A program made the translations under genes and the position numbers. The notes under the pieces are model-generated. The model searched no databases. It had not been told where the DNA came from and saw nothing but the letters and a program-made list of their open reading frames with translations. A stretch of 63,595 bases of DNA, filler included, from a bacterium (GTDB taxonomy: Bacteria; UBA9089; CG2-30-40-21; SBAY01): assembly GCA_040757115.1 (NCBI GenBank). It is 6 parts of 6 records of this genome, joined end to end, with 100 filler letters (N's around TTAATTAATTAA, not from the genome) between each part and the next. Parts side by side here need not be neighbours in the genome. Positions count along the whole stretch, not along the records: positions 1 to 6,619 come from JBFLYA010000208.1; positions 6,720 to 13,314 come from JBFLYA010000209.1; positions 13,415 to 43,650 come from JBFLYA010000021.1; positions 43,751 to 50,340 come from JBFLYA010000210.1; positions 50,441 to 56,993 come from JBFLYA010000211.1; positions 57,094 to 63,595 come from JBFLYA010000212.1. One strand, given 5' to 3'. Positions 5,995-59,401 of this stretch are shown piece by piece. Each line of letters opens with the position of its first letter. Position 1 is the stretch's first letter.

Positions 5995-6164
5995 CCACCT
6001 GTGCAATTAGACTAATTTATCGCAGAGACGCAAAGGAAAAATAAATGTAAAATGTAAAATAGGAAATGAAAAATGGGAAATTTTAGTACTTCGCAAGACT
6101 CATTACCTTTCAGTTATACATTTTCATTTTACATTTCTCATTTTACATTTAACCGCACAGGTCG
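5995..6164. mobile_element. MITE with CCACCTGTGC/GCACAGGTCG ends and inverted AAAATGT/ACATTTT heptamers
   Basis: Near-identical copy at 31149-31332. Confidence 0.85.
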
Positions 6165-6170
6165 AGATTC

Positions 6171-6411
6171 GTAACCGTTCAGCCACAGAGGCACAGAGTT
6201 CACAGAGAATTAGAGAAATTAGCCACAAATGGACACGAATTAACCTGTGACATTCGATAAATGTAGTGCGAACCTTTAGGTTCGCTTTCCTGCTTGCCAG
6301 AAGCGCGGCTAAAGCCTCGCACTACAAATCTTTTTATTATTCGTGTTCATTCGTGGTTATATATTCCCTCTGTGTTCTTTGTGACTCTGTGGCTATATCC
6401 TGAACGGTTAC
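6171..6411. mobile_element. IS66-like MITE (GTAACCGTTCAG...CTGAACGGTTAC) with nested inverted repeats and GTAG-REP core
   Basis: 12-bp TIR; flanks CGAGATTC/CGAAATTC (7/8 TSD); inverted relative at 24402-24634. Confidence 0.85.
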
Positions 6412-6524
6412 CGAAATTCTTCCCTGGAAATGAAGACATAAAGGTCAGACCGGGAGCGCGATGCTCTTACTGGTGGCAATAAAAGTTGCCACCTGGAAAC
6501 AAAAATTACCAGAGGTGTAAGACT

Positions 6525-6619
6525 ATGGAATTATTGGACTTAGAAACTCTGATTGATACCGCTATTAAGGAAGATATAGGGAAAGGGGACATAACCACAG
6601 CCCTATGTCTGGTAAAAAA
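6525..6619 (+). CDS. nadC: Nicotinate-nucleotide pyrophosphorylase, N-terminal fragment cut by contig end
   Basis: LIDTAIKEDIGKGDITT is the typical NadC N-terminus. Confidence 0.7.
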
Positions 6620-6873
6620 NNNNNNNNNNNNNNNNNNNNNNNNNNNNNNNNNNNNNNNNNNNNTTAATTAATTAANNNNNNNNNNNNNNNNNNNNNNNNN
6701 NNNNNNNNNNNNNNNNNNNATTATCTCAGTAAGTAGATTTTCTTGATATTCTTCTCTGATATCTCCATATCCCCTTTATCCCCTTATCCCCCTTCTTATA
6801 CTAACTACGATCAAAATATTCCTATTTCACAGGTCGAAAAATTTTAAAAATATAAAAAAATATAAAAAAGTAC

Positions 6874-6902
6874 TTGACAAATTTTAATTAATGTGCTATA
6901 AT
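6874..6902 (+). promoter_or_regulatory. Consensus sigma70 promoter
   Basis: TTGACA-17-TATAAT with TG extension and A-rich upstream tract. Confidence 0.85.
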
Positions 6903-7061
6903 TTATATATCTGAAGAAAGAAGGAATAATGAAAGATAGATAGCCTAAATAAAAATGGACAAAAAAGGTGAAAGGGGAAGGCTATGATAGTTCAGGCAGT
7001 TTCTCAAGAGAAAAATGGAAGGGGAGGGGAAAAAGAGGATTTTATTACAACCTATGTGGAA

Positions 7062-7108
7062 ATAAAAGGTTACCCTATGTGTGGATAGAGTAGCCTTTTT
7101 TATTTTTT
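7062..7108 (+). terminator. Intrinsic terminator in long leader
   Basis: AAAAGGTTACCCTAT/ATAGAGTAGCCTTTT stem followed by T-rich tail. Confidence 0.65.
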
Positions 7109-7468
7109 GAGGAAAGTTTTATCTACGGCGATTCAGCAAAAGTGATGTCTAATGAAGTGGAGTGACCAATCTTTTAGATCCTGAGACTCCTAAAATAAGG
7201 TGCGGGTCAGGATGACAGGCGAGTTGAGGAGGACATTCTCGGCCTCCTTGGTAAACCAGAAGACAAATTCTATCCTGAGAGGAGAGGAGAGGTGAGGTAA
7301 GTTATTAAAGAGTTCTGGAAAATGAGATTTTACTTTATGTGTCATTCACGCCAAAGCAGGAATCAAAAGAAAATAAATGACTTTGAAAGTTCGTATCAAG
7401 TGTGGAATGACAAAAAAAATGGTATTTCCCAGAAGTCTAATTTTAACAAAAAAAGGAGGTGAAAAAGA

Positions 7469-8008
7469 ATGAAGAAATTACTAATGTTGATGGCTCTATT
7501 AGCCGTAATAGCAGTACCAGTAATGTGTTTTGCACATGTAGAGGGCGAAATTCCAGGTCCGACAGTACTGAAGTCGGATAATATCCCAGATGAGGGTGCA
7601 GGTGAGGAAGTGACGGTGAGGATTCGTGTGACGGCAGATGTGTACCCATATTTAAAGGTACGGATTAGCGAACAGCATATTCATTGGGAAATTACATCAC
7701 CAGGGATCTATACGGAAGAAGGACCATATATTTGGGTCGATAGTAACTGTCCTTACGCTGTAGAGCTTGGCTGGACAGATTTAGAAGGTCCAGGTCCAGA
7801 GCCGATAGCCCTGCTAACATCCTATGAGCTGGTACCGGCGGGGATGTATGACGAGTGGATCTTAATGTGCAAAGTGAATGCTAATGGGAATCCTCCAGCG
7901 ACCGCCAATTCTGAGGACTACTGTCTGTGGCCAGATGTACCTGTAGAACAGCAAGCCGATGGTTGGTATGAAGGTGAAGTTAGAATAGTCTTCCATGGAC
8001 ACATTTAG
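7469..8008 (+). CDS. Secreted beta-rich protein, pilin/WxL-like paralogue 1
   Basis: Signal peptide, strong SD AGGAGGTG; shares LKSD..IRVT.DVYPYLK and C-terminal GHI with the next gene. Confidence 0.7.
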   Translation: MKKLLMLMALLAVIAVPVMCFAHVEGEIPGPTVLKSDNIPDEGAGEEVTVRIRVTADVYPYLKVRISEQHIHWEITSPGIYTEEGPYIWVDSNCPYAVELGWTDLEGPGPEPIALLTSYELVPAGMYDEWILMCKVNANGNPPATANSEDYCLWPDVPVEQQADGWYEGEVRIVFHGHI

Positions 8009-8361
8009 AGAAGAAGAAAGGTTTATAGATGAAAAAAAGGGGAAGGAGGAAAAAATTTCTTTCCTCCTTCCCTAAAAAGTGTGAAATAAGAATGATAACC
8101 GTGGAGAGATAAAAATATGCAATTGGATTGAGGGGAAAAATTATCCGAAAATAACTTGATGCTAAAAATTAGAGACAAGGAAACCGAAGGGAAAAATAAA
8201 TATTAATGGTGAAAAATATGAATCTCGCGTGAAAGTGTGGTTATATAAATTTTGAAGTATAGAGAAGTAAATATTTATATGTGGGGAGAAAGAAAGAGTG
8301 TAGTGGTGCTATGTTACCGTGAAAATTAAACTAAAATATATAATTCTAAGGAGAAAAAAGA

Positions 8362-8994
8362 ATGAGTAAAAAATTGAAGGGGTGGAAAGGTTATATAATA
8401 GCGTTGTTCTTAATAACAATTGCAATTACCAGTAAGGCAGATATTGCTTTGGCCAAGGGTGCAATATTAAAATCAGACCATATTGAGCAGGCTGGAGAAG
8501 GTGAGATTGTCACTGGTAAAATAAGGGTCACAGGAGATGTATACCCATATTTGAAAATAACAATTGTTGACCCTAATATTACCTGGGATATTAATGGTGG
8601 AACAGGAGAAGCGGCGAGTGCAGGACCGTTGGTAATGGTAAAGGCAAATTCTTTATTTAATATTGGTGTAGGTGATGTTGATAACTTAATAAATACAGCA
8701 TATCCCCCGGACTACAATACAGGCGCAAATATATTAGAAACATGGTTTGCAACGGGGGATAACGAAATTGATAATCCATTTGAGGAAATATTACCACCCA
8801 ATAAGGCTATCATCGCAGGAAGTAATGACCCTACTAATCCTAATCACGGGGATTTAGAATGGAATATTGCACCAACCTATATCTCGTATGTGAGTAAATA
8901 TCTCTGGAATAAAATTAGGGTTGAAGGAAATGATGAAGCAGGTCATTATTTAGACCCAGATGGATATATTATCATCATCTATGGACATATTTAA
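8362..8994 (+). CDS. Secreted beta-rich protein, pilin/WxL-like paralogue 2
   Basis: Signal peptide; KYLWNK and AGHYLD...GHI C-terminus. Confidence 0.7.
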   Translation: MSKKLKGWKGYIIALFLITIAITSKADIALAKGAILKSDHIEQAGEGEIVTGKIRVTGDVYPYLKITIVDPNITWDINGGTGEAASAGPLVMVKANSLFNIGVGDVDNLINTAYPPDYNTGANILETWFATGDNEIDNPFEEILPPNKAIIAGSNDPTNPNHGDLEWNIAPTYISYVSKYLWNKIRVEGNDEAGHYLDPDGYIIIIYGHI

Positions 8995-9215
8995 TATTAT
9001 GGTTTGGTTCATATAAGTTAGGGGAGAAATTATCTCTCCAAATAGGGATAGATAAACGCCGATAGAAAACTTAGAGAGAGGAATAAATTCTTTCTTTTTA
9101 GCAACAATCTTTTGGGCAAGATGATAAGAAAGAGATAATTCTTTTCTAAGGGGGTAAAAGAGGGCTTCGTTTTATACGAGAACATTCAATATTTTGAAGG
9201 AGGTAAAAAAATAAA

Positions 9216-9824
9216 ATGAAAATATATGTATATATTATAATAGGTATGATGATATTATTTAGCCAGGAGGTAAAGGCAGAATTAAATGCGGAATTAGATG
9301 CCTGGGGTAATGAAATAGAAGGAGAATGTGATGGAGAGAATCCAGGACCAATATTTATGTATAACACCATCGGTGCAAAATTAGACCCATTTATTACCGT
9401 AAATGTTCAAGGGACAGGATTGTACTGGGAGATTACTTCCCCAGGAAAATATAAGGCACCTGGAACAAAGATAGATGTAGAGGGAAATGCGCGCTGTGAT
9501 ATTTATTTAGAAGGGGCAGGTAATCTCGTTTATAAAACAAATCCTGCTAAACCTATATTAGAGGCTAGATATGCCATTGGTGGTGATAATCAGAATACTC
9601 CACCAGAGGACGAATTTAAAGACATAGCCTATTTATCCACTTATCCATTAGTCGAAAATTTGGATACCAGTGGTGGTCAAACATATTATCTATGGGGTGA
9701 AGTAACTTCAGGAATAGAGGACCCAGCAACAGTGGATGATAACAACCCACCTCAGTTCCCACCAAATGAAGGGGAATATCAAGATTCATTAGGATTTTGG
9801 ATGACCTTTGTTGCACATTTGTAG
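9216..9824 (+). CDS. Secreted beta-rich protein, pilin/WxL-like paralogue 3
   Basis: Signal peptide; WEITSPG shared with paralogue 1; YYLWGE and EGEYQD...AHL. Confidence 0.7.
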   Translation: MKIYVYIIIGMMILFSQEVKAELNAELDAWGNEIEGECDGENPGPIFMYNTIGAKLDPFITVNVQGTGLYWEITSPGKYKAPGTKIDVEGNARCDIYLEGAGNLVYKTNPAKPILEARYAIGGDNQNTPPEDEFKDIAYLSTYPLVENLDTSGGQTYYLWGEVTSGIEDPATVDDNNPPQFPPNEGEYQDSLGFWMTFVAHL

Positions 9825-10459
9825 TAACCGTTCACCGCACAGACACAGAGACGCAGAGAAAAAATTAAAGTAACCGTTCAGCCACAGAGGCACAGAGTTC
9901 ACAGAGAATTAGAGAAATTAGCCACAAATGGACACGCATTATAGCACTTATTAATCGAAATTTGACATAGATAGGGCTCTGAAATTCCAAATCACAAATT
10001 CCAAATTCCATTTAGTGAATTAGTGAATTAAGCGAATTAGCGAATTAGTAAAATCTAATCTCTAATTCACTAATCTCTAATTCGCTTTTTGGTATGTGGA
10101 ATTTGGTGCTTGGGATTTGGGATTTTTTTTACTTATCCACTCTGAGTAAAGTTTTGACTAATAACTGCTATATTCCCTCTGTGTTCTCTGTGACTCTGTG
10201 GTTATATCCTGAACGGTTACCATCCTCAAAACTTCACTCCCTAAATTTTTCCTAAGCCTTACCTATGTCAGTGATAGTGTCCGTGTCAGTGAAGAAACTC
10301 CTTCAACTCATCCAACACTTCCAACTCTTCCTACTCTTTCAACTCTTCCAGCAGAAGTATAGGTAGGTCTCCCAAGCCTTCATTCTTCTGCAATTTCTGC
10401 CCGTTTTAGTCTGAAGTTTGATGTCTATAGTCTACTGTCTGAATCACAGGAACGCTTAC
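9824..10459. mobile_element. Compound nest of IS66-like MITEs (inner 9870-10220)
   Basis: GTAACCGTTCA at 9824 and 9870; CTGAACGGTTAC ending 10220; GAACGCTTAC ending 10459. Confidence 0.75.
9942..10170. mobile_element. IS630/Tc1-like MITE (TAGCACTTATTAATCGAAA ends, TA duplication)
   Basis: Flanked by TA on both sides; copies at 13420-13694 and 39162-39391. Confidence 0.8.
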
Positions 10460-10548
10460 ATATTTTTATATTATACCTCAAATTAAGATTAATTGCAAGT
10501 ATTTTTTTAGTTGAAAATCTATCCTTTTTATGCTATACTCTACTCAAA

Positions 10549-10971
10549 ATGGAGGATGATTCTATGGACTCACTTGAGATAAACAGTAAATCCAGAACAG
10601 AATTTATAGATATTACGGCAAAGGTAGAGGATATTGTCCGCAAAAGTGGGGTAAAAAGCGGAATATGTTATCTTTTTGTGCCACACACGACCGCAGGTAT
10701 AACTATTAATGAAAATGCTGACCCAGGTGTAGTCGTTGACATATTAAAAGAACTTAACAAAATTATTCCCTTCAAAGATGGATATTTACATTCTGAAGGG
10801 AATGCGGATGCCCACATTAAATCTACGATTGTTGGGACTTCACTGAATATTTTTATCGAGGATAGCCGACTTGTTTTAGGCACCTGGCAGGGGATATTTT
10901 TTTGTGAATTCGATGGCCCGCGAAGAAGAAAGGTATTTGTTAAGGTAATTGCACATCTGTTTTCCCAATAA
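10549..10971 (+). CDS. yjbQ: YjbQ/UPF0047 family protein
   Basis: PHTTAGITINENADP, HSEGNADAHIKS, LGTWQGIFFCEFDGPR. Confidence 0.93.
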   Translation: MEDDSMDSLEINSKSRTEFIDITAKVEDIVRKSGVKSGICYLFVPHTTAGITINENADPGVVVDILKELNKIIPFKDGYLHSEGNADAHIKSTIVGTSLNIFIEDSRLVLGTWQGIFFCEFDGPRRRKVFVKVIAHLFSQ

Positions 10972-12169
10972 ATTTATCGATAGTTGAATAGAATTTTTTA
11001 TCTATTTTTTTACCTTCACAGCCAACTTCATACGCACACTCAACACATTCTAATCTTCTGCCGCCGAGTTCTTCTAATTTGCCCGCCTCATCTAACTTCT
11101 CTAATTTCTTACAGGCATCATGATAGCCCTGCCGAACTGCTTTTTTCAATTTTTCAGGGGTGAACTCAAATAGCCCTATATCTATATCCTTATCAGGCTG
11201 GATGACAATATTATTAATTAACTCTTTGTGCTGTTTAAAAGGAATACTTTGCTCGATTACGGTTTGAATTTGCTGGATTATTTCTTTATCTTTAGCAGTT
11301 TTTTTAAGGATAAAATCTATTGCCTCAACCATCTTTTGCCATGTCTTGATAACATTGTTTATTAATTCTGCCCGTTGAAAATCCTCCTCAGTCGTATTTT
11401 CTAAAAATATTTCGAGTGTTCGGGCAGCAATCAAAGGTAGATTACTAAATTGTAAATCTACCGGTGTGCGTTGAGGCGGTTTAATTAAAATAGTGAAAAT
11501 ATCTTTACAACCAGATTCGATAGCATTCATTAATGGGGTATTATTCCCTACCCCACCATCAATATATTGATAGCCCGAAATATCCTCCGGATTAAAGGCA
11601 ACCGGGATAGCCGAGGTAGCCATCATACAAGAAATAGCCATCTTTTCAAAATCCGTATCTCTGACCTCTTTAATCGAATCCTTTCTTTTAATGAAAAATT
11701 TTCCATCTTCAGTTTTAACAAAGGTTTCCTCATTACCAATCTGAAGATTTGTCCCGGTAAGAATTAGTTTATTCCCGGAACCCTTCAGGTTATTGATATT
11801 GACTACACTTTTAACTAAACTCCGCAATGGAGTGGAGTCGCACAGGGAATTGATGTTAGAAACAATTTTAATTAACTTGCTTTTTGCCCAATATAACGAG
11901 ATAATTGGAAAAAGGAATAAGATATCTCCAAAATTAAATTTTAATTTAATCTTGGGCGCAAATACCGACTTATTAGTAATTTTTTCCTGCCATAGCTTTA
12001 TCAAATCATCAATCTGATTAGAGGCAATCAATGTTGCATTCAAGCCACCAACAGATGTGCCGACAATAACATCGAACTTAATTTTGGCATCGATTAGTGC
12101 CTTGACCACACCGGCTTCATAAGCCCCTTTTCCCCCGCCACCACTTAAAACTAAACCTATTTTAGCCAT
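10940..12169 (-). CDS. Patatin-like phospholipase
   Basis: LSGGGGKG, GTSVG (GxSxG) and DGG motifs. Confidence 0.9.
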   Translation of the reverse strand: MAKIGLVLSGGGGKGAYEAGVVKALIDAKIKFDVIVGTSVGGLNATLIASNQIDDLIKLWQEKITNKSVFAPKIKLKFNFGDILFLFPIISLYWAKSKLIKIVSNINSLCDSTPLRSLVKSVVNINNLKGSGNKLILTGTNLQIGNEETFVKTEDGKFFIKRKDSIKEVRDTDFEKMAISCMMATSAIPVAFNPEDISGYQYIDGGVGNNTPLMNAIESGCKDIFTILIKPPQRTPVDLQFSNLPLIAARTLEIFLENTTEEDFQRAELINNVIKTWQKMVEAIDFILKKTAKDKEIIQQIQTVIEQSIPFKQHKELINNIVIQPDKDIDIGLFEFTPEKLKKAVRQGYHDACKKLEKLDEAGKLEELGGRRLECVECAYEVGCEGKKIDKKFYSTIDKFIGKTDVQLP

Positions 12170-12213
12170 TTCATTTTACCTCCTTTGGACTTCTTACTTT
12201 TTATCCAGGAGTC

Positions 12214-12507
12214 GTAACCGTTCACCGCAGAGACACAGAGACGCAGAGAAGAAAATTAAAATTTATGGACGATAGGCTTAACATCCCTGATTTTCATCAG
12301 TGCAAGCTCTTGAGTCCAACAACATTAAACTTGCCCTGATGAAAATCAGGGATGGATTAACAAATCTGGCTTGCCGGCTGAACATTCGGCAAGCAAGTCA
12401 TAAGTATTTCCATGTCTGCATCAATAATCTTTTATGTTATCTGATTTATTTCTATATCTTCTCTGTTCCTCTGCGTCTCTGCGGTAAATTACCACCTGAA
12501 CGGTTAC
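12214..12507 (-). mobile_element. IS66-like MITE carrying a GxxExxY N-terminal remnant
   Basis: GTAACCGTTCA/TGAACGGTTAC ends; CCGCAGAGAC inverted repeats; minus strand reads IEINQIT*KIIDA. Confidence 0.75.
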
Positions 12508-12650
12508 GAATTATTATCCAATTCCAATGTTGACAAATCCAGATTTTTCTTCAAATCTTCTGGTAAGGTAGCATTGATAAAATCATCTGCATTCTCTTTA
12601 TTGGAAAACACCTCTTTAAAAAAGGCATCATGCGGATTGGATATCTCCAT
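12508..12650 (-). pseudogene. Truncated Rpn/YhgA-like recombination-promoting nuclease
   Basis: Manual translation MEISNPHDAFFKEVFSNKENADDFINATLPEDLKKNLDLSTLELDNNS, cut at the MITE end. Confidence 0.8.
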
Positions 12651-12731
12651 CTTTATTTTCTCCTGCCCCATTTTTATCTTACTGGTATTATAGCAGATAA
12701 TTCTGTAAAAGTCAAAGGTTTTTTACTTTTG

Positions 12732-12870
12732 TCAGGAATTCTCGGTGAAAAATTAGATAGAGACTCATTATTCCTTATTTTTCTCTCAAAATGTTTACGA
12801 AAAATATTTTTTTCTATCTCTCCTAAACATAGATGAATTCAGTCTCTAAAAATTCACCGAGAATTGCTGA
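12732..12870. mobile_element. Short MITE-like element
   Basis: Inverted ends TCAGGAATTCTCGGTGAA / TTCACCGAGAATTGCTGA; no TSD seen. Confidence 0.55.
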
Positions 12871-12877
12871 ATGTACA

Positions 12878-13098
12878 TTTTTCTTCTTGACATCAAATAT
12901 CCTAATATGATAAACTTAAAATAGCTCTATAAAGCTGTCAAAAAAAACTGCCACAAAATGGCTTAGTTCAACCAGTCGCTGCACCTGACTGCGGGGGACT
13001 GTGCCGTGATTAAAGTTTTGTGGTATTTTCAAGGTTTTATCTTGCTAATAAAGTTTAGTGGTAATTCCTCCCGCAGCAGGTGAGTTCAGTCGTTAGAC
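12878..13098 (+). other. Promoter unit copy 3 plus solo long attC (12966-13098)
   Basis: TTGACA at 12887; GTTCAAC...CACCTGACTGCGGG/CCCGCAGCAGGTG...GTTAGAC. Confidence 0.8.
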
Positions 13099-13187
13099 CA
13101 TCGCGAGCAATCGAGGAGGATTGGATAAATAAAGGTTAACTCCTGAACCTGTCAAAAACAGGTTTTATCCGAGAACGTTCATAATTT

Positions 13188-13314
13188 GTAACCGTTCAGG
13201 CTATATATCAAAAGTGTAAGAAAGGGGATAAGGAGATAAGAGTGATATGGAGATAAGATAATAGAAATAGATTGAAACTTATAGAAATTAGGTAGAAATT
13301 GATTGGGGAAAACA
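13188..13314. mobile_element. Left half of IS66-like MITE (same subfamily as 16765-17001), cut by contig end
   Basis: Nearly identical to 16765-16890. Confidence 0.8.
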
Positions 13315-13419
13315 NNNNNNNNNNNNNNNNNNNNNNNNNNNNNNNNNNNNNNNNNNNNTTAATTAATTAANNNNNNNNNNNNNNNNNNNNNNNNNNNNNN
13401 NNNNNNNNNNNNNNCTTTA

Positions 13420-13920: not shown

Positions 13921-14241
13921 TAGAATTCTGCAAAATTAGGAAACTGTAGTTTTTAAGCGGGTATTTAAAACCTCTATTTTTATCAATTTCCTCCAAAGAG
14001 CAAAATGCACAACTCATTTATAGTTTATAGTGTATAGTTTATGGTTTATAGTTTATAGTCTATAGTCCTTCAACTATAAACTATCAACTATAAACTATCA
14101 ACTATCTACTACATTTCAGCGTTAAAATACTTAAAGCAAAGATATTACCAATTTGAAATTTGATTTGTAATTTTGCATTTTGATATTTGATATTTGATAT
14201 TTATTTGTTGTCTCCCCCCAATCCTATTTTGCAGAACCCTA
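13921..14241 (-). mobile_element. Deletion derivative of the four-helix-bundle element with 10-bp TSD
   Basis: TAGAATTCTGCAAAA...TTTTGCAGAACCCTA flanked by TTTTATTCCT on both sides. Confidence 0.85.
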
Positions 14242-48456: not shown

Positions 48457-48483
48457 TTCTTCAAAGAATCATTTATTTTACCT

Positions 48484-49116: not shown

Positions 49117-49117
49117 C

Positions 49118-50653: not shown

Positions 50654-50669
50654 ATAGGAGTGGGAGAAA

Positions 50670-51461: not shown

Positions 51462-51478
51462 CCGGTATTGGGTACCAA

Positions 51479-52062
51479 TAGGGTTCTGCAAAATAGGATT
51501 TGGGAGAGATAACTGAGAGTTAGACCTGAAATTAGAGATAAAAATTCAAATATCAAATATCAAAATGCAAAATTACAAATCAAATTTCAAAAAGGACTTC
51601 AAGAAAAGACTGTATAACTTTACTCTGCGACTTATAGAACTCATCGATAAGTTGCCAAAGGATAGTGTTTCTCAAAGAATTGGTGATCAATTATTACGGA
51701 GTGGTACAAGCATCATTGGGAATTATATTGAAGGGCAGGCGGCGAGTAGTAAGAAAGATTTTACTAATTTCTTTAATACATCTTTAAAGTCAACTAACGA
51801 AAGTAAGTTATGGCTTGCATTACTTCGTGATAGTAAACGTGCTAAACCAGAGGAAGTAGCAGGGTTTCTCAAAGAGTTGGAGGAATTTGGTAATATCTTT
51901 GCTTCAAGTATTTTAACGCTGAAAGGAAAGAGATAATTTTACATTTTGATATGTAATTTTTATATTTGCTTTTTGCATTTTGCTCTTTGGAGGAAATTGA
52001 TAAAAATAGAGGTTTTAAATACCCGCTTAAAAACTATAGTTTCCTGATTTTGCACAACCCTA
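51479..52062 (+). mobile_element. Non-autonomous TIR element carrying an intact four-helix-bundle gene
   Basis: TAGGGTTCTGCAAAA...TTTTGCACAACCCTA; flanks GGGTACCAA/TGGTACCAA. Confidence 0.85.
51565..51936 (+). CDS. Four helix bundle protein (23S rRNA IVP-like, TIGR02436 type)
   Basis: QLLRSGTSIIGNYIEGQAASSKKDF, ESKLWL. Confidence 0.92.
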   Translation: MQNYKSNFKKDFKKRLYNFTLRLIELIDKLPKDSVSQRIGDQLLRSGTSIIGNYIEGQAASSKKDFTNFFNTSLKSTNESKLWLALLRDSKRAKPEEVAGFLKELEEFGNIFASSILTLKGKR

Positions 52063-52089
52063 TGGTACCAAAATAAAGGAGGTAATCTT

Positions 52090-52491
52090 ATGGTCGGTTT
52101 TTTAGAAATAACTTTAGTCGTTCTTATGTTTGCAACGATATTAGTCTGGGCAATTTTAATTACATTTCTCTGGTGGGAATTATTACAGTTGAAAAAGATA
52201 AGACAAGAAATGGAAGAATTACCAACTAAATTATCTGAGGCATTGAGATTTATGGAGGATGCAGATGGGATTTCCAATAATATGAAGGAAGAAGTTATGC
52301 CAATGATAATGGGAGCAAGTACTGATTTAAAAATCGTTGCGGATGATATGCGAACATCGATGGACACTATCGTAAAATCCTTAAAAGACCCACCTCCCTG
52401 GCTCAATCAATTAGTCGCCGCAATTGATATGAAACTTGAAAATAAACTGGGTAAAGTGGAAAAAGGTATTAGTGAGTTATTAAAAAGGTAG
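52090..52491 (+). CDS. Single-TM coiled-coil hypothetical protein
   Basis: SD AAGGAGGT; N-terminal TM. Confidence 0.7.
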   Translation: MVGFLEITLVVLMFATILVWAILITFLWWELLQLKKIRQEMEELPTKLSEALRFMEDADGISNNMKEEVMPMIMGASTDLKIVADDMRTSMDTIVKSLKDPPPWLNQLVAAIDMKLENKLGKVEKGISELLKR

Positions 52492-52572
52492 AAATAAGGG
52501 AATAGGTCTTAACTTCTTCCTTGAAATTTCCCTTGACTAAATTCAAATTATTTGCTATCATAATTAATAACA

Positions 52573-55500
52573 ATGAAAAAAACAATAGATTTTGTCGTCA
52601 ATAATTTAAAAATTCTCACTCATTATCTAAAAAGAACCGAAGGAAAAGATTCAATTCCTCTTGAACAAAATGACTTTGACAAACTACTTAATTGGGTTGT
52701 TGGGATAGTCGTCATTGGGTTTGTTATTTTAAGTTTCTTCTTCCTTCATAATGTTACTGTTTTATGGATGTCTGTTTTATTTCTGGTAATTCTTCTGGCG
52801 ATGCATAATTTTATTCTCCTCAAGGCGCGAAGTGATGAAAAAATAAGTAACTATCGTGCCGAACAACTCGCTACCCTTCAACAAATATCCTTAGGACTAA
52901 CCTCTACCCTTCATATGAATGAGATTCTGGAGTTAATTCCATCGGCGGGTGTCAAATTAGCCCAGGTAGATGGTTGTTTAGTTAGTCTGGCAGGGAAGAT
53001 GAAAGAAGACATAATCCCTAAGGCTAAAGAAGGCATTCAAACAGACCTGGCACAAATGGAAACCAAAGGAAAGATAAGTAATTGGCTGGTTCAGCACAAA
53101 ACATCCCTCGCTATCCAGGATTTATCTACAGACCCCAGAATGCCTGACTGGGTAAAAAGTGAAGGATTCTCCTCATATCTTGGACTACCACTGAAAGTCA
53201 GGGATGAAATAATTGGTGTTTTAGAATTTTATTCTAAAACCCATCGTAGTTTCACCACTGAAGAAATAGACTTACTTAATATATTTTCTGCCCAGGCCGC
53301 GACCGATTTAGAAAATGCCAGACTTTATGGAATCACTAAAGATGCTTTACAACGCGAAATTACCAGCTCTATGGCTTTACTCAAAATAGAACAAGCCATT
53401 ACCACAAAATTCGACCTTAAAGAACAATTAAATTTAATTATGGCTGGTGCGATTGACATAACTCTGGCAGAGAAATCTTCTCTCTGGTTAATTGATGAGA
53501 TTTCAGGAGAGGTTATTTGCAAAGGCACATATCCTCTTGAGGAAAAATTAGCGAAATCAAGTGTCCGATTCGGTGAAGGAATTACAGGTTGGGTGGCTAA
53601 AGAAGGTAAATTACAAAATATACAGGATTTAAGTAAAGATTCACGGTTTGTTAATCCATTAAAACAAGACCTTTATTCTCAACTCTCTGTTCCTCTAATG
53701 TATAAAGAAAAAACTATAGGTGTGCTCAATGTCTTCAATTCAAAGCGTGAAGAAGGATTTAATGAGGCAGATGAAAAAATACTTATGGTTTTAGCCTCAC
53801 AAACCGCTGTCTCCTTGCAAACCATTAAATTATATACCGAACTAAAAACCGCGGCTAATGCCCTGTCGGTATTATATGAAATAAGTAAAACTATTAGTGA
53901 GGGTAGAGAACTCCAGGAAGTATTAACCTTAATTCTGAAGAAAGGGAGTGAAATATTCCAGGCTCAACATGGCTCGATTATGTTATTAGATGAATCTTCA
54001 GGTGAACTGAGGATTAAAACCGCTGAAGGACTTTCTGAAGAAATTATTAAACATACAGTTAAAAAACCAGGAGATGGAAGTATCGCCGGTTGGGTGGCAG
54101 AGAAAAAAGAACCTCTATTACTTATTGGTAAAGTGGATGATGTTCGATTCAAATCAAGCAAAGTAGAAACTGAGATTAAAGATGCTATGTGTGCCCCATT
54201 GATTCTTAAGGATAAATTAATTGGTGTTTTTAATATTAGCAATCGAGTTGGAGCGGGTGTATTTACAGAATCTGACCTGAATTTACTCTGCACTTTAGCC
54301 AATGAGGTCAGTATTGCCATTGAAACAGCAAGATTATATGAAATAATTACTCAACGGGTAACAGAATTATCAAGTTTTTATATTATCTCAACCGCTTTAT
54401 CTTCTACACTCAGTCTTTCAGAAATCTTTAAAATCGTCATGGAAAGAATAACGACAATATTCACAGAGTTTGCCATAAGTATCTCTCTTTATGAAAAGGA
54501 TAAATTAAAGAGAATAGCCGAACGCGGCTTTGGAGAAGATAAAACTTTAGACACAGAGTTAGAATTAGAAAAGGATGAATTAAAAGAAAAACTAAAACCT
54601 TTATTTGTTAGTAAAAGATACCTTTGTTTTAAAACAACAGAAGATATATCCAATTTGAAAATACTGGTTGGGACAGGCAAAATAGAGTATGCTTTATTAT
54701 TCCCATTAGTGGCAAAAGATAAGGTCATTGGTATTTTAACCTTTATCTCGCAAACTAAAGAAGAACTAACGAAAGAAGAGATAAGATTGCTTACTGCCCT
54801 TTCACAAGCTACTGCTTCCTCCATAGAAAATGCTAAACTATACACTCAGACAACTCGACGATTGCAAGAATTATCAGGGCTACAACAAATAACCAATAAA
54901 ATGGCATTAACGACAAATACAACCGAGCTTTTAGCCCTGGCGGTAAATATCATTAATGAAGTCATCGGTTCAGAATTGGGACTTGTATTTCTGTGGGATG
55001 AAGACCGTAAGGAGTATATCGTTAAGGTTGGTCAGGGTAAAAAGAGGGTAAGCGAAGGACTATTTAAAGCACTTAAATTTAAACTGGGTGAGGGTATAGT
55101 TGGCTGGGTAGGTGAAAAAGGAGAAGGTGTAATACTTGATGATGCCCGCAAAGACCCAAGATTTAAACAAATAGGAGATTTATATATCCGAAGTGTCCTT
55201 GCTGTTCCAATCATTAAAGATAATAAACCAATAGGGGTTATGGAATTTATAAATAAACTACCCGCAGGTGGAGGATTTTGTAGTGAAGATGAACGAATGG
55301 TTTCTATCATCGCTAATCAAACAGCCATTATTTTAAGTAATGCTGATGCATTTGATGAAATAAAGCGTCGGGCATTACAACTATCTACGGTTCAAGCAGT
55401 GAATAAAATGATTACATCAGTATTTGGTGTGGAGGAACTGCTAACACAAATCGTCGAGTTGACGGCTAAGGTATTACGAGTTAAAAAGGCAAGTTTATCT

Positions 55501-56535
55501 TTATTAGAGCCAGATGGTCATGTTAAGTTAGAAGCGGCTTATGGATTAACCTATATGGAACAAGAGCGAGAAGAAAAATTAACACCAGGATTTGGAATTG
55601 CCAGTAGGGTCATCCAAACCAATCATCCGTTCTTGATTAATAATTTACCAGAAGATACAACCTTAAGCGAGGAGGAGAAAAATATTTATATTGAAAAATC
55701 ATACCTGAGTGTGCCTCTTAATATTAGAAAAAAGACCGTTGGAGCATTGACTATTTCATCAAAACTTAATGAGTCTTTCTTTAATGAACAGGATATTGAA
55801 GTTTTAACTACTATTTCTGAACAATCATCAATTGTAATTGAATATGCAAAATTATACCAAAATCTGCAAAGACACAGTATGGATACTTTGCGGACCCTTT
55901 CATTGGTAATTGAAACAAGAGACCCGTTCACAAAGGGACATTCAGAGGCTGTAGCAAAATATGCAGTCGCCATTGGTAAAGAATTGAATCTTTCTAATGA
56001 TGCCCTTAAAACATTAGAAGTATCTGCCCTTTTACATGATATTGGGAAGATAGGCATAAAGGAGAGTATTTTACTCAAGACAGAAAAGGAATTGAGTATT
56101 GATGAACATCGGGAGATAAGGAATCATCCGTTCCTTGGTAGTCAAATTTTAAGACCACTGGAATTTTTGAAGGATGTTATTCCAATTGTTTATCATCATC
56201 ATGAACGATATGATGGCACAGGTTATCTGGATGGATTAGCCGATGAAAAAATACCATTGTTAGCCAGAATCATTGCTGTGGCAGATACCTTTGATGCAAT
56301 GACCTCAACACGGGCATTTCGGGAAAGTGTGTCTGATGAGGAAGCAATAGAGGAATTAAAAGACCAATCCGGGAAACAATTTGACCCAAAGGTAGTCGAG
56401 GCTTTCCTGAAAATACATCCCATCCTCCGCAAAGACGCCCTTGAAAAAGCAAGACGGGAAAAAGAGAAAAAGAAAAAAGAAGTCAAATCAACCACACCAG
56501 TAGGTGAACATAAGATTTGGGAAAGATATGAGTAG
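52573..56535 (+). CDS. Membrane protein with six GAF domains and an HD-GYP-type phosphohydrolase
   Basis: Six GAF repeats ending in xENARLY-like helices; HDIGKIG, HHERYDGTGYL, ADTFDAMTS.R. Confidence 0.92.
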   Translation: MKKTIDFVVNNLKILTHYLKRTEGKDSIPLEQNDFDKLLNWVVGIVVIGFVILSFFFLHNVTVLWMSVLFLVILLAMHNFILLKARSDEKISNYRAEQLATLQQISLGLTSTLHMNEILELIPSAGVKLAQVDGCLVSLAGKMKEDIIPKAKEGIQTDLAQMETKGKISNWLVQHKTSLAIQDLSTDPRMPDWVKSEGFSSYLGLPLKVRDEIIGVLEFYSKTHRSFTTEEIDLLNIFSAQAATDLENARLYGITKDALQREITSSMALLKIEQAITTKFDLKEQLNLIMAGAIDITLAEKSSLWLIDEISGEVICKGTYPLEEKLAKSSVRFGEGITGWVAKEGKLQNIQDLSKDSRFVNPLKQDLYSQLSVPLMYKEKTIGVLNVFNSKREEGFNEADEKILMVLASQTAVSLQTIKLYTELKTAANALSVLYEISKTISEGRELQEVLTLILKKGSEIFQAQHGSIMLLDESSGELRIKTAEGLSEEIIKHTVKKPGDGSIAGWVAEKKEPLLLIGKVDDVRFKSSKVETEIKDAMCAPLILKDKLIGVFNISNRVGAGVFTESDLNLLCTLANEVSIAIETARLYEIITQRVTELSSFYIISTALSSTLSLSEIFKIVMERITTIFTEFAISISLYEKDKLKRIAERGFGEDKTLDTELELEKDELKEKLKPLFVSKRYLCFKTTEDISNLKILVGTGKIEYALLFPLVAKDKVIGILTFISQTKEELTKEEIRLLTALSQATASSIENAKLYTQTTRRLQELSGLQQITNKMALTTNTTELLALAVNIINEVIGSELGLVFLWDEDRKEYIVKVGQGKKRVSEGLFKALKFKLGEGIVGWVGEKGEGVILDDARKDPRFKQIGDLYIRSVLAVPIIKDNKPIGVMEFINKLPAGGGFCSEDERMVSIIANQTAIILSNADAFDEIKRRALQLSTVQAVNKMITSVFGVEELLTQIVELTAKVLRVKKASLSLLEPDGHVKLEAAYGLTYMEQEREEKLTPGFGIASRVIQTNHPFLINNLPEDTTLSEEEKNIYIEKSYLSVPLNIRKKTVGALTISSKLNESFFNEQDIEVLTTISEQSSIVIEYAKLYQNLQRHSMDTLRTLSLVIETRDPFTKGHSEAVAKYAVAIGKELNLSNDALKTLEVSALLHDIGKIGIKESILLKTEKELSIDEHREIRNHPFLGSQILRPLEFLKDVIPIVYHHHERYDGTGYLDGLADEKIPLLARIIAVADTFDAMTSTRAFRESVSDEEAIEELKDQSGKQFDPKVVEAFLKIHPILRKDALEKARREKEKKKKEVKSTTPVGEHKIWERYE

Positions 56536-56547
56536 ACATCTCTTCCC

Positions 56548-56817
56548 GTAACCGTTCAGGTGGTAATTCACCGCAGAGACGCAGAGGAACAGAGAAGACA
56601 TGGAAATAAATCAGATAACAGAAAAGATTATTGATGCAATCATTATCCTACATAGGACATCAAAACCAAATTTGTTAATCAATCATGATATGTCGGTCCT
56701 CAAAAGCTTGCACTGATGAAAATCCGTGATGGAATTCTGCGTCTGGTAAATAGTTTTTAATTTTTTCTCTGCGTCTCTGTGTCTCTGCGGTGAACGGTTA
56801 CCGTGGTGAATAGTTAC
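56548..56817 (+). mobile_element. IS66-like MITE with internally deleted GxxExxY gene
   Basis: Encodes MEINQITEKIIDA... and ...RDGILRLVNSF* between CCGCAGAGAC inverted repeats. Confidence 0.8.
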
Positions 56818-56875
56818 AAATTCGACGCTTTCAGCGTCAATAACCTAAAACCTAATCGCACAGGTCGAAAAATTT

Positions 56876-56993
56876 CGACCTGTGCGGTTAGATTTTATGC
56901 TGCCAATTTGAGTTCTATCTTACCCTCTTCAAACCATCTTTTAGTTTCATTGTTTCTTACCATAGCAGTTATTGAGGCAAGAGTTACTGAACC
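56876..56993 (-). mobile_element. 3' end of a transposase (ISLre2/ISKra4-like) with CGACCTGTGCGGTTAG terminal repeat
   Basis: 56895-56993 translates GSVTLASITAMVRNNETKRWFEEGKIELKLAA*, followed by the same end as the MITEs at 5995 and 31149. Confidence 0.65.
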
Positions 56994-57296
56994 NNNNNNN
57001 NNNNNNNNNNNNNNNNNNNNNNNNNNNNNNNNNNNNNTTAATTAATTAANNNNNNNNNNNNNNNNNNNNNNNNNNNNNNNNNNNNNNNNNNNNCTACCAA
57101 TATATCGTTCCTACGGAACTGATTGATTTGTCTATCTATTTCTACCGATATTATGTTCCTAACGGAACGATTATTCTCCTGCCTTATTTATGGGTATTAT
57201 CCTATGTAGACTTCCAGTTAATAACCGCTATATTTTTCGTAGGGCGACCCTTTAGGGTTGCTTCTTGCTTGCCTTACAATCTTGATGCTTTTACTA

Positions 57297-57566
57297 TTAT
57301 GGGAAATATCTGTAAATTTCCTTGCGGTGTAAAAAGCGTACCATATCAACGGTATCCCTTTTCATTTTCACACCCAGACGATAATCCCCAACCTTAATTC
57401 TAAAATATTCTGTGTAACCCTGTATCTTTTTAACATCCTTCAGCGTAGTCAGTTCTTTAGTTTCTTTGATCTGTTGAATAAGTTTCCAGAGGCGTTTTTT
57501 TACGGTAGTCTGATTCTTAATCTTATCAATATCTTGACTAAATTTCTTTGTGTATTTTATCTTCAT
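57297..57566 (-). CDS. RelE/ParE family toxin
   Basis: KKIQG...FRIKVGDYRLG...HRKEIYRYFP. Confidence 0.9.
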   Translation of the reverse strand: MKIKYTKKFSQDIDKIKNQTTVKKRLWKLIQQIKETKELTTLKDVKKIQGYTEYFRIKVGDYRLGVKMKRDTVDMVRFLHRKEIYRYFP

Positions 57567-57569
57567 AGA

Positions 57570-57773
57570 TTATCCTTCCAACTTTGCCAGAATCTCTTTT
57601 TCAGAGACATATTCACCTATATCTCCTTCTTCTATTGCCAGACCAAATTTCATATCCAAAATAGCTTCAGATACTGCATCTTCTAACAAATCTTTTCTTT
57701 CACTTAACACGCTAATAAAGACCTCTCTAATTACTTTTTTAAGTTCCATTACTGATGTTTGTTGTGTCCTCAT
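57570..57773 (-). CDS. Putative antitoxin
   Basis: Upstream of RelE; AIEEG..GEYVSEKEIL. Confidence 0.75.
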   Translation of the reverse strand: MRTQQTSVMELKKVIREVFISVLSERKDLLEDAVSEAILDMKFGLAIEEGDIGEYVSEKEILAKLEG

Positions 57774-57777
57774 TCTG

Positions 57778-58310
57778 TCACTCCTTTCTCTTATCAATGC
57801 GACCTTTTAGGGTTACTTCTTGACTAAGAAACTCATTTTGTTTTATGTCGTGTATTCCATACCAGTCAGCCACAAGCTCAAACACGCCTTTATTTATTTT
57901 GAATCCAATATCATAGCCGGGATTTTTTGTTGGAATCATCAAGTCAACCTCTGTGGTCATCCCACCGTATCCCCGTTTCTTGACTCTGTCTTCTACGGGT
58001 TGATATCCAAGGTCTTGCAGGGCTTTTAGTAAATGTTCTTTTTGTAACTATTCACCATTCACCATTCACAATTTCTTCCCTAAATTTCCTTAATAATGGT
58101 GAATGGTGAATTGTCAATTGTGAATTGTGAATTATCACTCTTCACGGTGTCAAGCAAACCTGGCCCAAGAGTTCGATGCACCGCTATAGCGCATCCAATG
58201 ACTCTATTCGATAATTCATCAAATTTCACTTCGTGCTCTCCGTACCCTTCGTGGTGAATAGTTACTTCGTTTTTTACAAGTTTTGTTTTGATGCGAGTAA
58301 AATGCGACAT
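57778..58310 (-). pseudogene. DUF1257 (Ycf35-like) gene interrupted by a MITE
   Basis: MSHFTRIKTKL...[insertion]...EHLLKALQDLGY...YDIGF...ELVADW. Confidence 0.8.
58044..58265 (-). mobile_element. IS66-like MITE with GxxExxY 5' fragment
   Basis: TSD TTCTTTTT/TTCGTTTT; encodes FDELSNRVIGCAIAVHRTLGPGLL. Confidence 0.85.
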
Positions 58311-58336
58311 AGTTTTCTTTACCTCCTCGTATAATA

Positions 58337-58485
58337 TAGTAGTTATTAACGAAAATTTCTCATAGAACAGATATAGCAACAGGGTTGATGGTTGATAGTT
58401 TATAGTTGATAGTTTCATAGACTATCAACCATCAACTATCAACTATCAACAATACTAATGTGAACTTTTGGTTAATACTTACTTA
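58337..58485. mobile_element. IS630-like MITE with GTTGATA/TATCAAC inverted heptamers
   Basis: TAGTAGTTATTAAC left end similar to the 39162 family; truncates the ORF following the MNT gene. Confidence 0.6.
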
Positions 58486-58523
58486 TAGAAGCCTTCAATA
58501 AGGTTATTGCTTTTTTTAGATGT

Positions 58524-58814
58524 TCAAATTCCTGTAATATCAAGCCTTTTTGCATTTTTTAATACCTCCTGGCAAAAAGCACTTTTATCGTCATAAACAA
58601 TAATATCAATCTTTTCCTCACATCTTAGAAAAAATCTTGCTTGAATCTTAAGAGATAACTTTAAAGGATTTATCTTTTCTTGAGAAATGAGGAGGATATC
58701 TATATCTCCTCCTTTTTTTGTCTCATCAAGCCTTGAACCAAATAGATAAACTGCTCCTTTGAAATCAGTTAAAGCAAACTTTAATGCCTCCTTTTCCTCT
58801 TTATCCAGACGCAT
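58524..58814 (-). CDS. Minimal nucleotidyltransferase
   Basis: VYLFGSRLDETKKGGDIDIL; start at MRL. Confidence 0.88.
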   Translation of the reverse strand: MRLDKEEKEALKFALTDFKGAVYLFGSRLDETKKGGDIDILLISQEKINPLKLSLKIQARFFLRCEEKIDIIVYDDKSAFCQEVLKNAKRLDITGI

Positions 58815-58969
58815 AATCTTTTCCAACTGATAAGAATTTGTTTTTTGGATATTTTTTGCTTCGCAAGATTTTCGTTTTGCTCGAATTCGAATATTAGATT
58901 CACTTTTGCTCATTATGGAGATATTTTACCAAAGATTTTAACTCATGTCAATAGAAATTTGCCTACTGC

Positions 58970-59253
58970 CTGTGATTCAGACACTGGACATCAGACACAA
59001 GACTATAGATTCTATTTATGCAGGAAATTAGTGACATTTGGGAAACCATCCTCAAAACTTCACTCCCTGAATTTTTCCTGAGCCTTACCTATGTCAGTGA
59101 CAGTATCAGTGTCAGTGTCAGTTAAGGAAATGTTTTCAACACTTCCAACTCCTTCAACACTTTCAACACTTCCAACTCTTCCAACATTCTTCTGCAATTT
59201 CTGCCCGCTTTAGTCTGAGGTCTGATGTCTATAGTCTACTGTCTAAATCACAG
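58970..59253. repeat. Nested repeat element homologous to 10220-10449
   Basis: IR CTGTGATTCAGACA/TGTCTAAATCACAG; internal GTCAGT and CCAAC-type tandem units. Confidence 0.75.
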
Positions 59254-59272
59254 TTCCAGGTAAAAAAAATAC

Positions 59273-59301
59273 TTGCAATTAATCTTAATTTAAGGTATAA
59301 T
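59273..59301 (+). promoter_or_regulatory. Sigma70 promoter abutting a minimal IS66-like MITE (59312-59384)
   Basis: TTGCAA-17-TATAAT; inverted copy at 10470-10498. Confidence 0.7.
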
Positions 59302-59401
59302 ATAAAAATATGTAAGCGTTCAGCATTCAGTTTTTGAAAGATGGCTAAATGCTGACAACTGATGGCTGACCGCTGAACGCTTACCTTTCAGGGGGTTAAT
59401 A

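Follow-up and report, generated by a model that had tools for sequence, protein, structure and literature searches.

Repeat-armed gene cassettes and non-autonomous transposon shells in a UBA9089 bacterium: probably two stacked layers of selfish DNA

Why should transposon-like shells with at least seven kinds of ends all enclose inverted pairs of short-period repeat arrays? The question was raised by a first-pass annotation of a 63,595-nucleotide stretch of the bacterial genome GCA_040757115.1 (lineage UBA9089; CG2-30-40-21; SBAY01), hereafter the window, in which positions 5995-59384 were described as many unrelated shells of the kind known as MITEs (miniature transposable elements with inverted repeats), built around a four-helix-bundle (4HB) protein family (TIGR02436) and the GxxExxY family (TIGR04256). 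The window consists of six draft contigs (1-6619, 6720-13314, 13415-43650, 43751-50340, 50441-56993 and 57094-63595), and its GC content is 36.6%. Because the contigs are joined by five N44-TTAATTAATTAA-N44 linkers (6620-6719, 13315-13414, 43651-43750, 50341-50440 and 56994-57093), 5995-59384 is not one contiguous piece of DNA, and what it displays is a property of the genome rather than of a single locus. Most of the contig ends lie inside shells or arrays. The nearest genome is that of a sister, G001 (4.7 Mb in 770 contigs), whose orthologous blocks are 97-98% identical to the window; it is the only genome of the same genus among those compared, the other relatives having at most about 70% DNA identity, and insertion sites were compared within this pair only. 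Flagellar and pilus genes are encoded at the G001 loci, which speaks against a cyanobacterium as the host, and the public runs containing window DNA are groundwater metagenomes (three DNA runs of one groundwater study).

The analysis suggests that these elements are probably two stacked layers of selfish DNA, with repeat-armed gene cassettes lying inside non-autonomous transposon shells. In the first layer, a cassette would be a small gene bracketed by inverted short-repeat arrays, with units mostly of 7 nt for 4HB and of 8-10 nt for GxxExxY; such cassettes would sit between genes of the same direction, cross phylum boundaries and decay into gene-less hairpins. The second layer would be the shells, non-autonomous transposons of the classical kind, which have inverted ends of at least seven types and duplicate their target; having captured cassettes or cassette relics, they would have multiplied these into dozens to hundreds of copies through transposases acting in trans. 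The S1 shell would use the ends of an IS66-family element.

To begin with the cassette genes, one intact TIGR02436 gene was found in the window (51565-51936), within an S3 shell; it is a full-length member of PF05635 (67.2 bits, cut-off 33.8). GxxExxY is represented in the window by stubs only, namely an N-terminal stub at 58137-58217 and about 17 codons in each of the elements 12214-12507 and 56548-56801. In G001, 38 matches to TIGR02436 (36 above cut-off) and 75 to TIGR04256 (52 above cut-off) were detected, many of them fragments in both families. We selected the 17 4HB and 17 GxxExxY matches of G001 that cover nearly the whole model and lie clear of contig ends. Arrays detected by Tandem Repeats Finder (TRF) stood on both sides of 16 of 17 4HB genes and on at least one side of 14 of 17 GxxExxY genes, the arrays of the remaining three being too short for TRF. 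The period was 7 in 32 of 41 arrays beside 4HB genes and 8-10 in 23 of 24 beside GxxExxY genes. We then aligned each upstream flank locally with the reverse complement of the downstream flank, using as controls 133 open reading frames (ORFs) drawn from the same loci as the family genes. The results showed that all 33 scorable G001 genes exceeded the 95th percentile of these controls (medians 44-45 vs 17; Mann-Whitney p=1.8e-18), so that the arrays are statistically associated with the two families, as the first-pass annotation had supposed.

The GxxExxY protein (TIGR04256 / PF13366, PD-(D/E)XK_3) has G20, E23, Y26, D63, E73 and K75 invariant in 16 aligned copies, in keeping with the GxxExxY motif and the D...ExK triad of the family. 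The best folds matching its AlphaFold model (pLDDT 95) were Cas4, Hjc and lambda exonuclease at a TM of about 0.45-0.5, and a PDB sequence search with GxxExxY gave no match. The accessory protein Avd of diversity-generating retroelements was considered as an identity and rejected (NF033474 19 bits vs a cut-off of 80, PF22296 20 bits vs 40 for the 4HB locus L012; an adjacent reverse transcriptase was not searched for).

The same arrangement was found outside the phylum. With an alignment of five GxxExxY sequences as query, we collected relatives of 55-74% identity on 80 public contigs of metagenome-assembled genomes, spanning Proteobacteria, Acidobacteriota, Planctomycetota, Chloroflexota, Verrucomicrobiota, Omnitrophota and one archaeon. 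Inverted flanks scored above the control 95th percentile in 57 of the 77 scorable relatives, which come from many phyla; together with the 33 G001 genes, this upholds the proposal that the elements are built around the two protein families. S1 shell ends stood on both sides of only one of the 80 foreign genes, which argues that the shell is a separate entity. Among the 34 gene-bearing cassettes of G001, 7 lay between two shell ends (S1, S1b or S5), 6 had one and 21 had none within 320 bp, which argues in turn for the cassette as the primary unit, with the shells as its vehicles. The cassette is thus an independent unit and the shells are add-ons. With stop-to-stop ORFs as gene proxies, 22 shell-less cassettes were scored for orientation: the upstream neighbor was on the same strand in 18 and on the opposite strand in 2, and the downstream neighbor on the same strand in 21 and on the opposite strand in none. 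The cassettes adjoin stop codons upstream and ribosome-binding sites downstream, between co-directional genes, and this co-orientation fits expression by read-through from host operons.

The repeat units track the protein clade across phyla. For GxxExxY, the motif C[AG]C[AG][AG]AG, which was defined from the same loci in which it was counted, occurred two or more times upstream and, mirrored, two or more times downstream at 41 of 76 loci (5 of 76 in the opposite-orientation control), and on at least one side at 66 of 76 (control 20 of 76). The GC content of the flanks at loci sharing it ranges from 30 to 68%. For 79 metagenomic relatives of the L012 4HB protein, the 6-mer similarity of the arrays was 0.70 at protein identities of at least 90%, 0.28 at 70-90%, 0.083 at 55-70% and 0.068 at 40-55%, against a background of 0.035-0.044. 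The L012-type unit drifts from TGGTAAN through TGGTTAA to CGTTAAC, and the copy number of the array differs between orthologous loci.

We next turn to the shells. All seven end motifs (S1-S7) named by the first-pass annotation were located in the window, where they behave as terminal inverted repeats with target duplications. The S1 motif GTAACCGTTCA occurs 10 times forward and 5 times in reverse; the corresponding counts are 4/3 for S2, 1/3 for S3, 2/1 for S4 and 1/1 for S5, and S6 and S7 each have one exact copy of the motif with an imperfect mate end. S1b (GTAACTATTCA), an additional eighth end type, is closely related to S1, and calling the shells unrelated was too strong for this pair. 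Among the loci fetched, perfect 8-bp flanking repeats were found in 21 of 52 distinct S1 end pairs, compared to 0 of 51 in an offset control. The target duplication of S2 is TA, and one S1b end, GTAAC-TA-TTCAGCC, is split by S2 at its TA, as comparison with uninterrupted S1b ends showed. S3 copies have a 10-bp duplication (TTTTATTCCT, at 13921-14241) or, in the gene-bearing copy, an 8-bp one (GGTACCAA). S4 has the 8-bp AAAAAAAG at 31149, none being visible at 5995; S5 has the 9-bp GTGGTGAAG, S6 (25213-25394, ends TGTCGTGTTGA) the 4-bp CTAT and S7 the 7-bp AAGCATC. The sister genome supplied the empty sites that the first-pass annotation had proposed looking for: the site of the S1 copy 36824-36981 (duplication AAAAGTAG) is empty there, that of the S3 copy 13921-14241 is a clean empty site with a single TTTTATTCCT, and that of S6 is empty as well. 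The shells have the features of MITEs, with terminal inverted repeats, target duplications (8-bp repeats for S1), empty sites (S1, S3 and S6) and many copies, and with no transposase inside, only arrays or a 4HB or GxxExxY gene.

The elements of the window are as follows, the intervals having been drawn by hand from the end motifs (sum 6,947 bp, 11% of the window); z scores of hairpins are from mononucleotide shuffles.
14-342, minus strand: gene-less S3 shell; GTTTATA x10 and TCAACTA x6 arrays, 88-nt 4HB 3'-end stub (171-258), right end TTTTGCAGAACCCTA at 328-342.
5995-6149, plus strand: S4 shell; ends CCACCTGTGC / GCACAGGT, inverted AAATGTA / TACATTT arrays; 96.8% identical to 31149-31303.
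6171-6411, plus strand: S1 shell, GTAACCGTTCA...TGAACGGTTAC; CACAGAG-type arms, a single hairpin (z -12.4); 39 similar places in G001.
9824-10220, plus strand: S1 left-end fragment (9824-9869) followed by an S1 shell (9870-10220), its center replaced by an S2 shell.
9942-10170: the S2 shell of this composite; arrays AAATTCC, TTAGTGAA, TCTAATC and TTTGGGA; S1+S2 composite at 13 G001 places.
12214-12507, minus strand: S1 shell with CGCAGAGA arms, keeping the first GxxExxY codons; L031-type deletion derivative; about 20 similar G001 places.
13188-13314, plus strand: S1 shell, GGAGATA type, truncated at the contig end.
13420-13694, plus strand: S2 shell, TAGCACTTATT...AATAACTGCTA, with TA on both sides; four array pairs; hairpin z -10.3.
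13921-14241, minus strand: gene-less S3 shell; duplication TTTTATTCCT; absent at the matching site of G001 contig C240.
14919-15189, plus strand: S1-type element with CGCAGAGA arms; same left end but a different S1 interior at the G001 site.
16765-17001, plus strand: S1 shell; AAGGAGAT and ATAGAAAT arms, duplication TGGTATTT; 30 G001 places, 10 of them at 100% identity.
19336-19551, plus strand: S5 shell, CTTATCGTTACCCACA...; CAATTAT / TAATTGT arms, duplication GTGGTGAAG; one full 98% copy in G001.
20914-21118, plus strand: S1b shell, GTAACTATTCA...TGAATAGTTAC, with CACGGATTA arms; 122-bp insert with (CAGAGGG)x10, absent from the G001 site.
24402-24634, minus strand: S1 shell, CACAGAG arms; member of the 6171 family in inverted orientation; z -14.2.
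25213-25394, plus strand: S6 shell, TGTCGTGTTGA...TCAACACGACA; TGGTAAT / ACCAATT arms, CTAT; downstream of tRNA-Gly; site empty in G001 contig C170.
30120-30438, plus strand: S7 shell, GTACCTGTTTAGCGTG...CACGCTAAACACCTAC; AATATCA array, duplication AAGCATC.
30541-30622, plus strand: ACCAATT/ACCAGTT array, x11.6, without a shell; immediately upstream of the L9 gene.
31149-31303, plus strand: S4 shell; duplication AAAAAAAG; the G001 spacer holds an unrelated 56-bp heptamer hairpin.
36095-36296, plus strand: S1 shell, CGCAGAGA arms, enclosing an S1b shell (36147-36245).
36824-36981, plus strand: S1 shell; GTCTGG / CCAGAC arms, duplication AAAAGTAG; empty site in G001 contig C22.
39092-39500, plus strand: three-level nest; S1 left part, within it an S1b shell, and within that an S2 shell (39162-39391) splitting the S1b end at TA.
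41162-41276, plus strand: S1 right end abutting an S3 right-end fragment.
42918-43159, plus strand: S1b shell; CACGGATTA arms and inner GGAGAAAC arrays.
50441-50654, plus strand: (ATAAACC)x18 array and S3 right end, at the contig start.
51479-52062, plus strand: S3 shell with the sole intact cassette of the window; AAATATC-type arrays, 4HB gene, mirrored arrays; GGTACCAA on both sides.
51565-51936, plus strand: the 4HB gene, 123 aa; TIGR02436 81.7 bits (cut-off 24), PF05635 as above, PDB 2RLD 3e-11.
56548-56801, plus strand: S1 shell with CGCAGAGA arms, keeping the start of a GxxExxY gene.
58044-58265, minus strand: S1b shell; ATTCACC / AATTGTG hairpin, CACGAAG-type units, GxxExxY N-terminal stub.
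58137-58217, minus strand: GxxExxY stub, model positions 1-27 of 116; 20.1 / 20.7 bits, below the cut-off of 35.
58384-58450, plus strand: shell-less perfect hairpin, GTTGATA x4 / ACTATCA x4; z -12.6.
59312-59384, plus strand: minimal 73-bp S1 element.

Apart from these elements, a 52-nt palindrome at 56846-56897 is formed by a pair of S4-type ends that meet back to back, hardly separated at all, and may be a minimal S4 relic. A further repeated element, at 10221-10450 and 59045-59253, has TGTCAG and 9-nt (AACTCTTCC / TTTCAACAC) arrays; neither an end motif nor a matching gene-bearing cassette in G001 was found for it. An 804-bp segment (19175-19978), including the S5 shell and coding-looking sequence, is replaced by 3 bp in G001. 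An MntA-like antitoxin / HepT-like toxin pair is encoded at 617-907 / 900-1262, with a second weak MntA-like ORF at 58524-58913, all below curated cut-offs. Segments 46197-46998 and 49369-50170 (89%), 44319-44663 and 44738-45086 (82%), and 60025-60243 and 63281-63499 (98%) are paralogous, being either gene duplications or other repeat families.

For the arrays themselves, TRF gave 145 rows of short-period repeats in the window. Counting periods of 6-10 with at least 2.5 copies, we obtained 75 arrays, of which 61 lie in shells, 8 in long ORFs and 6 outside shells. The majority of shells form hairpins along their whole length (z -5 to -14), with weaker folding (z -1.6 to -3.1) in S4, S7 and the S1b copy 42918-43159. 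At least 30% of the 9-mers of 31 of 72 window arrays, one of these being a false match to coding sequence, are shared with the flanks of a gene-bearing G001 cassette, the cassettes matched including L007, L009/L012, L011, L013/L014, L018/L019, L031/L032, L033 and L046. The arrays are not CRISPR arrays: their units of 6-10 nt stand head to tail without spacers and in inverted pairs, not as 25-40-nt repeats with unique spacers. At gathering score, Rfam found one tRNA only and no rRNA in the window. A 21/42-nt tandem repeat at 28259-28598 (about 16 copies, 77-88% identity) lies inside the ORF 28124-29044; it is coding and unrelated to the hairpin arrays. In G001, the locus L006 (C761:30494-33817) has a CRISPR-like direct repeat of about 25 nt at 75-76-bp spacing, with 564-861 bp in three slots, one of which holds a repeat-armed 4HB cassette, and L011 (C29) has one copy of the same repeat just past its downstream arm; the cassettes at L006 and L011 thus apparently occupy the place of spacers in a CRISPR array.

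Gene-less forms appear to descend from gene-bearing ones. Gene-less S3 copies retain 55-88 nt of the 4HB 3' end, which identifies them as deletion derivatives, and two deletion series were observed, one from the S3 element with a 4HB gene and one from the S1 element with a GxxExxY gene (L031). The claim that fuller copies hold a gene between the arrays is thus borne out by these series, although the window has a single intact 4HB gene and a few GxxExxY stubs. The nesting that had been described was confirmed in both genomes, with S2 in S1 and in S1b, S1b in S1, S1 in S1, and S3 in a heptamer array. Window and sister also differ from each other at several element sites. At 31113-31333 an S4 shell stands against a 56-bp heptamer hairpin in G001, and at 14919-15189 one S1 left end is followed by differing interiors. 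A 71-bp shell-less TGGTAAC hairpin is present in G001 only and the (CAGAGGG)x10 block in the window only; an S1-in-S1 nest of G001 lies at a site where the window has none, and a (GTTACCA/TTTACCA)x16 array of G001 takes the place of the S3+4HB cassette of the window.

How did one shell type become so numerous? IS66 ends are reported to start with GTAAGCG and to give 8-bp duplications (ISfinder). The 11-nt S1 end (GTAASCGTTCA) has 462+456 = 918 occurrences in G001, compared to 3+0 for the reversed control; 600, 274 and 257 were counted in G012, G003 and G017 (controls 0-5), and at least 12 of 24 genomes of the phylum have tens to hundreds. Both the S1-end and the TGGTAAC-dimer counts are highest in G001 among the phylum genomes compared, and G001, at 4.7 Mb, stands beside 1.3-4.3 Mb (mostly 1.4-3.1) in the other 23. 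In G007, a genome of the same order, we found a 1,505-bp array-free element (L323, 1339-2843) with ends GTAACCGTTCAC...GTGAACGGTTAC and a single 476-aa ORF, a member of the IS66 family by DDE_Tnp_IS66 PF03050 (136.6 bits); in G002 the same S1 end stands beside IS66 fragments. Two G001 candidates for autonomous partners, an IS66 copy (C698) for S1 and an IS630 copy (C696) for S2, were rejected for having other ends. The S1 partner is either unassembled in G001 or its S1 copies are now orphans. S7 has at least 6 partial copies in G001, each starting exactly at the end motif; for S4, S6 and S7, no partner was found in the PF01609 loci, the only loci checked for them.

How might the cassette work? 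We infer a working mode in which the arrays are the cis-acting ends of the cassette; they would be recognition sites, repeated and specific to the clade, and the protein encoded between them would be the simplest candidate for recognizing them. Cassettes cross phyla, and the sole clade-specific factor traveling with the arrays is the encoded protein, which would therefore be what reads them. The inverted layout would make the cassette fold back on itself; it would be transcribed by read-through from the host operon, and the RNA fold would be cut out by RNase III, as in the rRNA form. With its RNA removed in this way, an insertion between genes would be nearly harmless. Going further, and only tentatively, it is possible that 4HB and GxxExxY proteins each read, sequence-specifically, the 7-10-nt arrays flanking their own genes; that a small protein with mirrored recognition arrays makes up a minimal, self-contained class of mobile or addictive element that crosses phyla alone, multiplied here by ordinary transposon ends; that the GxxExxY nuclease acts on fold-back or cruciform arms; and that gene-less relics are the source of much unexplained heptamer-type intergenic DNA.

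Several observations weigh against the two-layer explanation and its mechanism. For the vehicle, no target duplication was seen at the G007 IS66-family element, 31 of 52 S1 end pairs lack a perfect duplication, and no close homologue of the S1 transposase was found in G001 (best 27% identical). Nor was an autonomous partner found for S2, S3 or S5, the PF01609 loci of the phylum giving only chance matches to S3 and S5; hitchhiking on insertion-sequence ends, as first proposed, thus holds for S1, which has a same-ended IS66-family element in G007, and lacks a partner for these three. For the protein, it is from conservation only that putative binding to the arrays was deduced, and the GxxExxY motif was counted where it had been defined. 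G001 contains one intact and one stop-bearing gene of the L012 type, together with 1,505 TGGTAAY-TGGTRA dimers; in G003 there are 133 such dimers and no relative above 33% identity was found, while G008 has a 57% relative (arms of GTCTGGT type) and zero dimers. Given these counts, dependence of the TGGTAAC hairpins in trans on an L012-type gene was not supported. For the RNA stem, arm mismatches compatible with G:U pairing were 108 on the sense strand vs 89 on the antisense strand (p=0.20), the spacer bases between conserved array cores are often non-complementary, and among the public runs matching the window no RNA runs were listed.

The last two sequence features bear equally on a pure RNA device resembling the rRNA intervening sequence (IVS), in which the arrays would matter only as a stem cut by RNase III, the unit would be meaningless and the protein would not recognize it. 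An ORF-bearing IVS with heptameric repeats in its stem is excised by RNase III (available part of PMC4990558), the cassettes are strongly co-oriented with host genes, and whole elements fold as hairpins, all as such a device would have it. However, besides the missing excess of sense-strand G:U and the non-complementary spacers, within one protein clade the unit core is kept in different phyla and at GC contents from 30 to 68%, and pairing alone needs no such conservation; we consider this explanation rather unlikely. It is quite improbable that the arrays are home-grown transposon interiors, produced by replication slippage and symmetrization of palindromes, which the gene families simply favor as landing sites. 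The unit goes with the protein clade, 21 of the 34 gene-bearing G001 cassettes have arrays without a shell end, relatives in other phyla have arrays without S1 ends, and the autonomous S1 element is array-free, although 81% of the window arrays do lie in shells, copy number differs between orthologous loci and array indels distinguish the window from G001.

Still less credence is due to hairpins that serve the host as terminators, mRNA stabilizers or processing sites, kept for regulating neighbors in the manner of REP or Correia elements. Their position between co-directional genes, after stop codons and before ribosome-binding sites, would suit such a role, and Correia elements bind RNase III and affect neighbors (available part of PMC2649163); yet presence or absence varies between genomes 97-98% identical, one spacer may hold different elements, hundreds of copies have target duplications, and genes and arrays decay into stubs. 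Finally, the window is made of contigs that break at repeats, as would be expected if the nests and composites were chimeras of short-read metagenome assembly, a possibility that the first-pass annotation had itself raised. The same S1+S2 composites, however, occur at no fewer than 13 G001 places with their own flanks and duplications in an independent assembly, which largely refutes this explanation and leaves it barely credible. The two-layer explanation remains the one we prefer, and most of what the first-pass annotation proposed holds up; at the level of the shells, ordinary transposon biology suffices, though its combination here is unusual.

Among known systems, the 23S rRNA IVS comes closest to the cassette. 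As described in the available part of PMC4990558, the Coxiella element has an S23p ORF in a 28-bp terminal-inverted-repeat stem with variable heptameric repeats; RNase III cuts it in vitro, and the S23p protein is apparently not made in vivo. The IVS of Coxiella burnetii and Leptospira resembles our units in having a PF05635 protein within a stem of inverted sequences with variable heptameric repeats, and in its sporadic, horizontally transferred distribution (same part of PMC4990558). In candidate phyla radiation bacteria, 23S_rRNA_IVP ORFs lie in 16S and 23S insertions, and the domain is called uncharacterized (10.1101/2024.02.27.582315, in the part available). Our units are not IVSs, for they lie between protein genes and in transposons rather than in rRNA helices; they have long multi-copy arrays as arms, a second cargo family (GxxExxY) and hundreds of gene-less relics. 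Like MITEs derived from insertion sequences (for S1, IS66), the shells have short inverted ends, fixed duplications, no transposase, high copy number and, in the case of S1, a same-ended full-length element; unlike them, shell and insertion sequence have only about 13 nt of end in common, the interior is another selfish unit with or without a gene, and several end types share the same kinds of interior. In the available part of a 2024 review of prokaryotic MITEs (PMC10969869), the terms 'tandem repeat', 'passenger', 'nested', 'IS66' and 'heptam' do not occur. Correia elements of Neisseria are also transposon-like hairpins, co-transcribed with their neighbors and bound and cleaved by RNase III (available part of PMC2649163), but they are one conserved family without internal tandem arrays or an associated small gene.

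The REPIN / RAYT system likewise combines numerous intergenic hairpin repeats in a genome with a small number of copies of a gene that putatively acts on the repeats; here, in contrast, the gene is inside the hairpin and the tandem arrays differ between clades. No Y1/HUH transposase was seen with the cassettes, no PF01797 search having been made. Short tandemly repeated repetitive (STRR) heptamers and small dispersed repeats nested in MITEs were reportedly described in heterocystous cyanobacteria by Mazel in 1990 and Elhai in 2008; these too are tandem heptamers lying between genes and small elements inserted one within another, in a different phylum, and we know of no report that links STRR to 4HB or GxxExxY genes. 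In the literature covered, which excludes subscription journals and supplements, we found no account of cassettes outside rRNA or of MITEs carrying them. The statement that no mechanistic description is known accordingly stands for cassettes outside rRNA, whereas the rRNA form has one in print. The sole published context of the two families is the 23S rRNA intervening sequence, and what is added here comprises the shells and their copy numbers, an IS66 partner and the analysis of unit against clade.

To our knowledge, both small protein families are very widespread and without known function. Between them, the two genomes provide intact cassettes by the dozen and relics by the hundred, along with insertions that have recently come to differ and, for one shell, a candidate transposase; the function of 4HB and GxxExxY proteins becomes directly testable, by asking whether they bind or cleave their cognate arrays and by assays of RNase III processing. 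With about 920 S1 ends in 4.7 Mb, the genome also presents the amplification of one selfish element by another. The finding also accounts for the poor assembly of such genomes and suggests where short-period intergenic repeats may come from.

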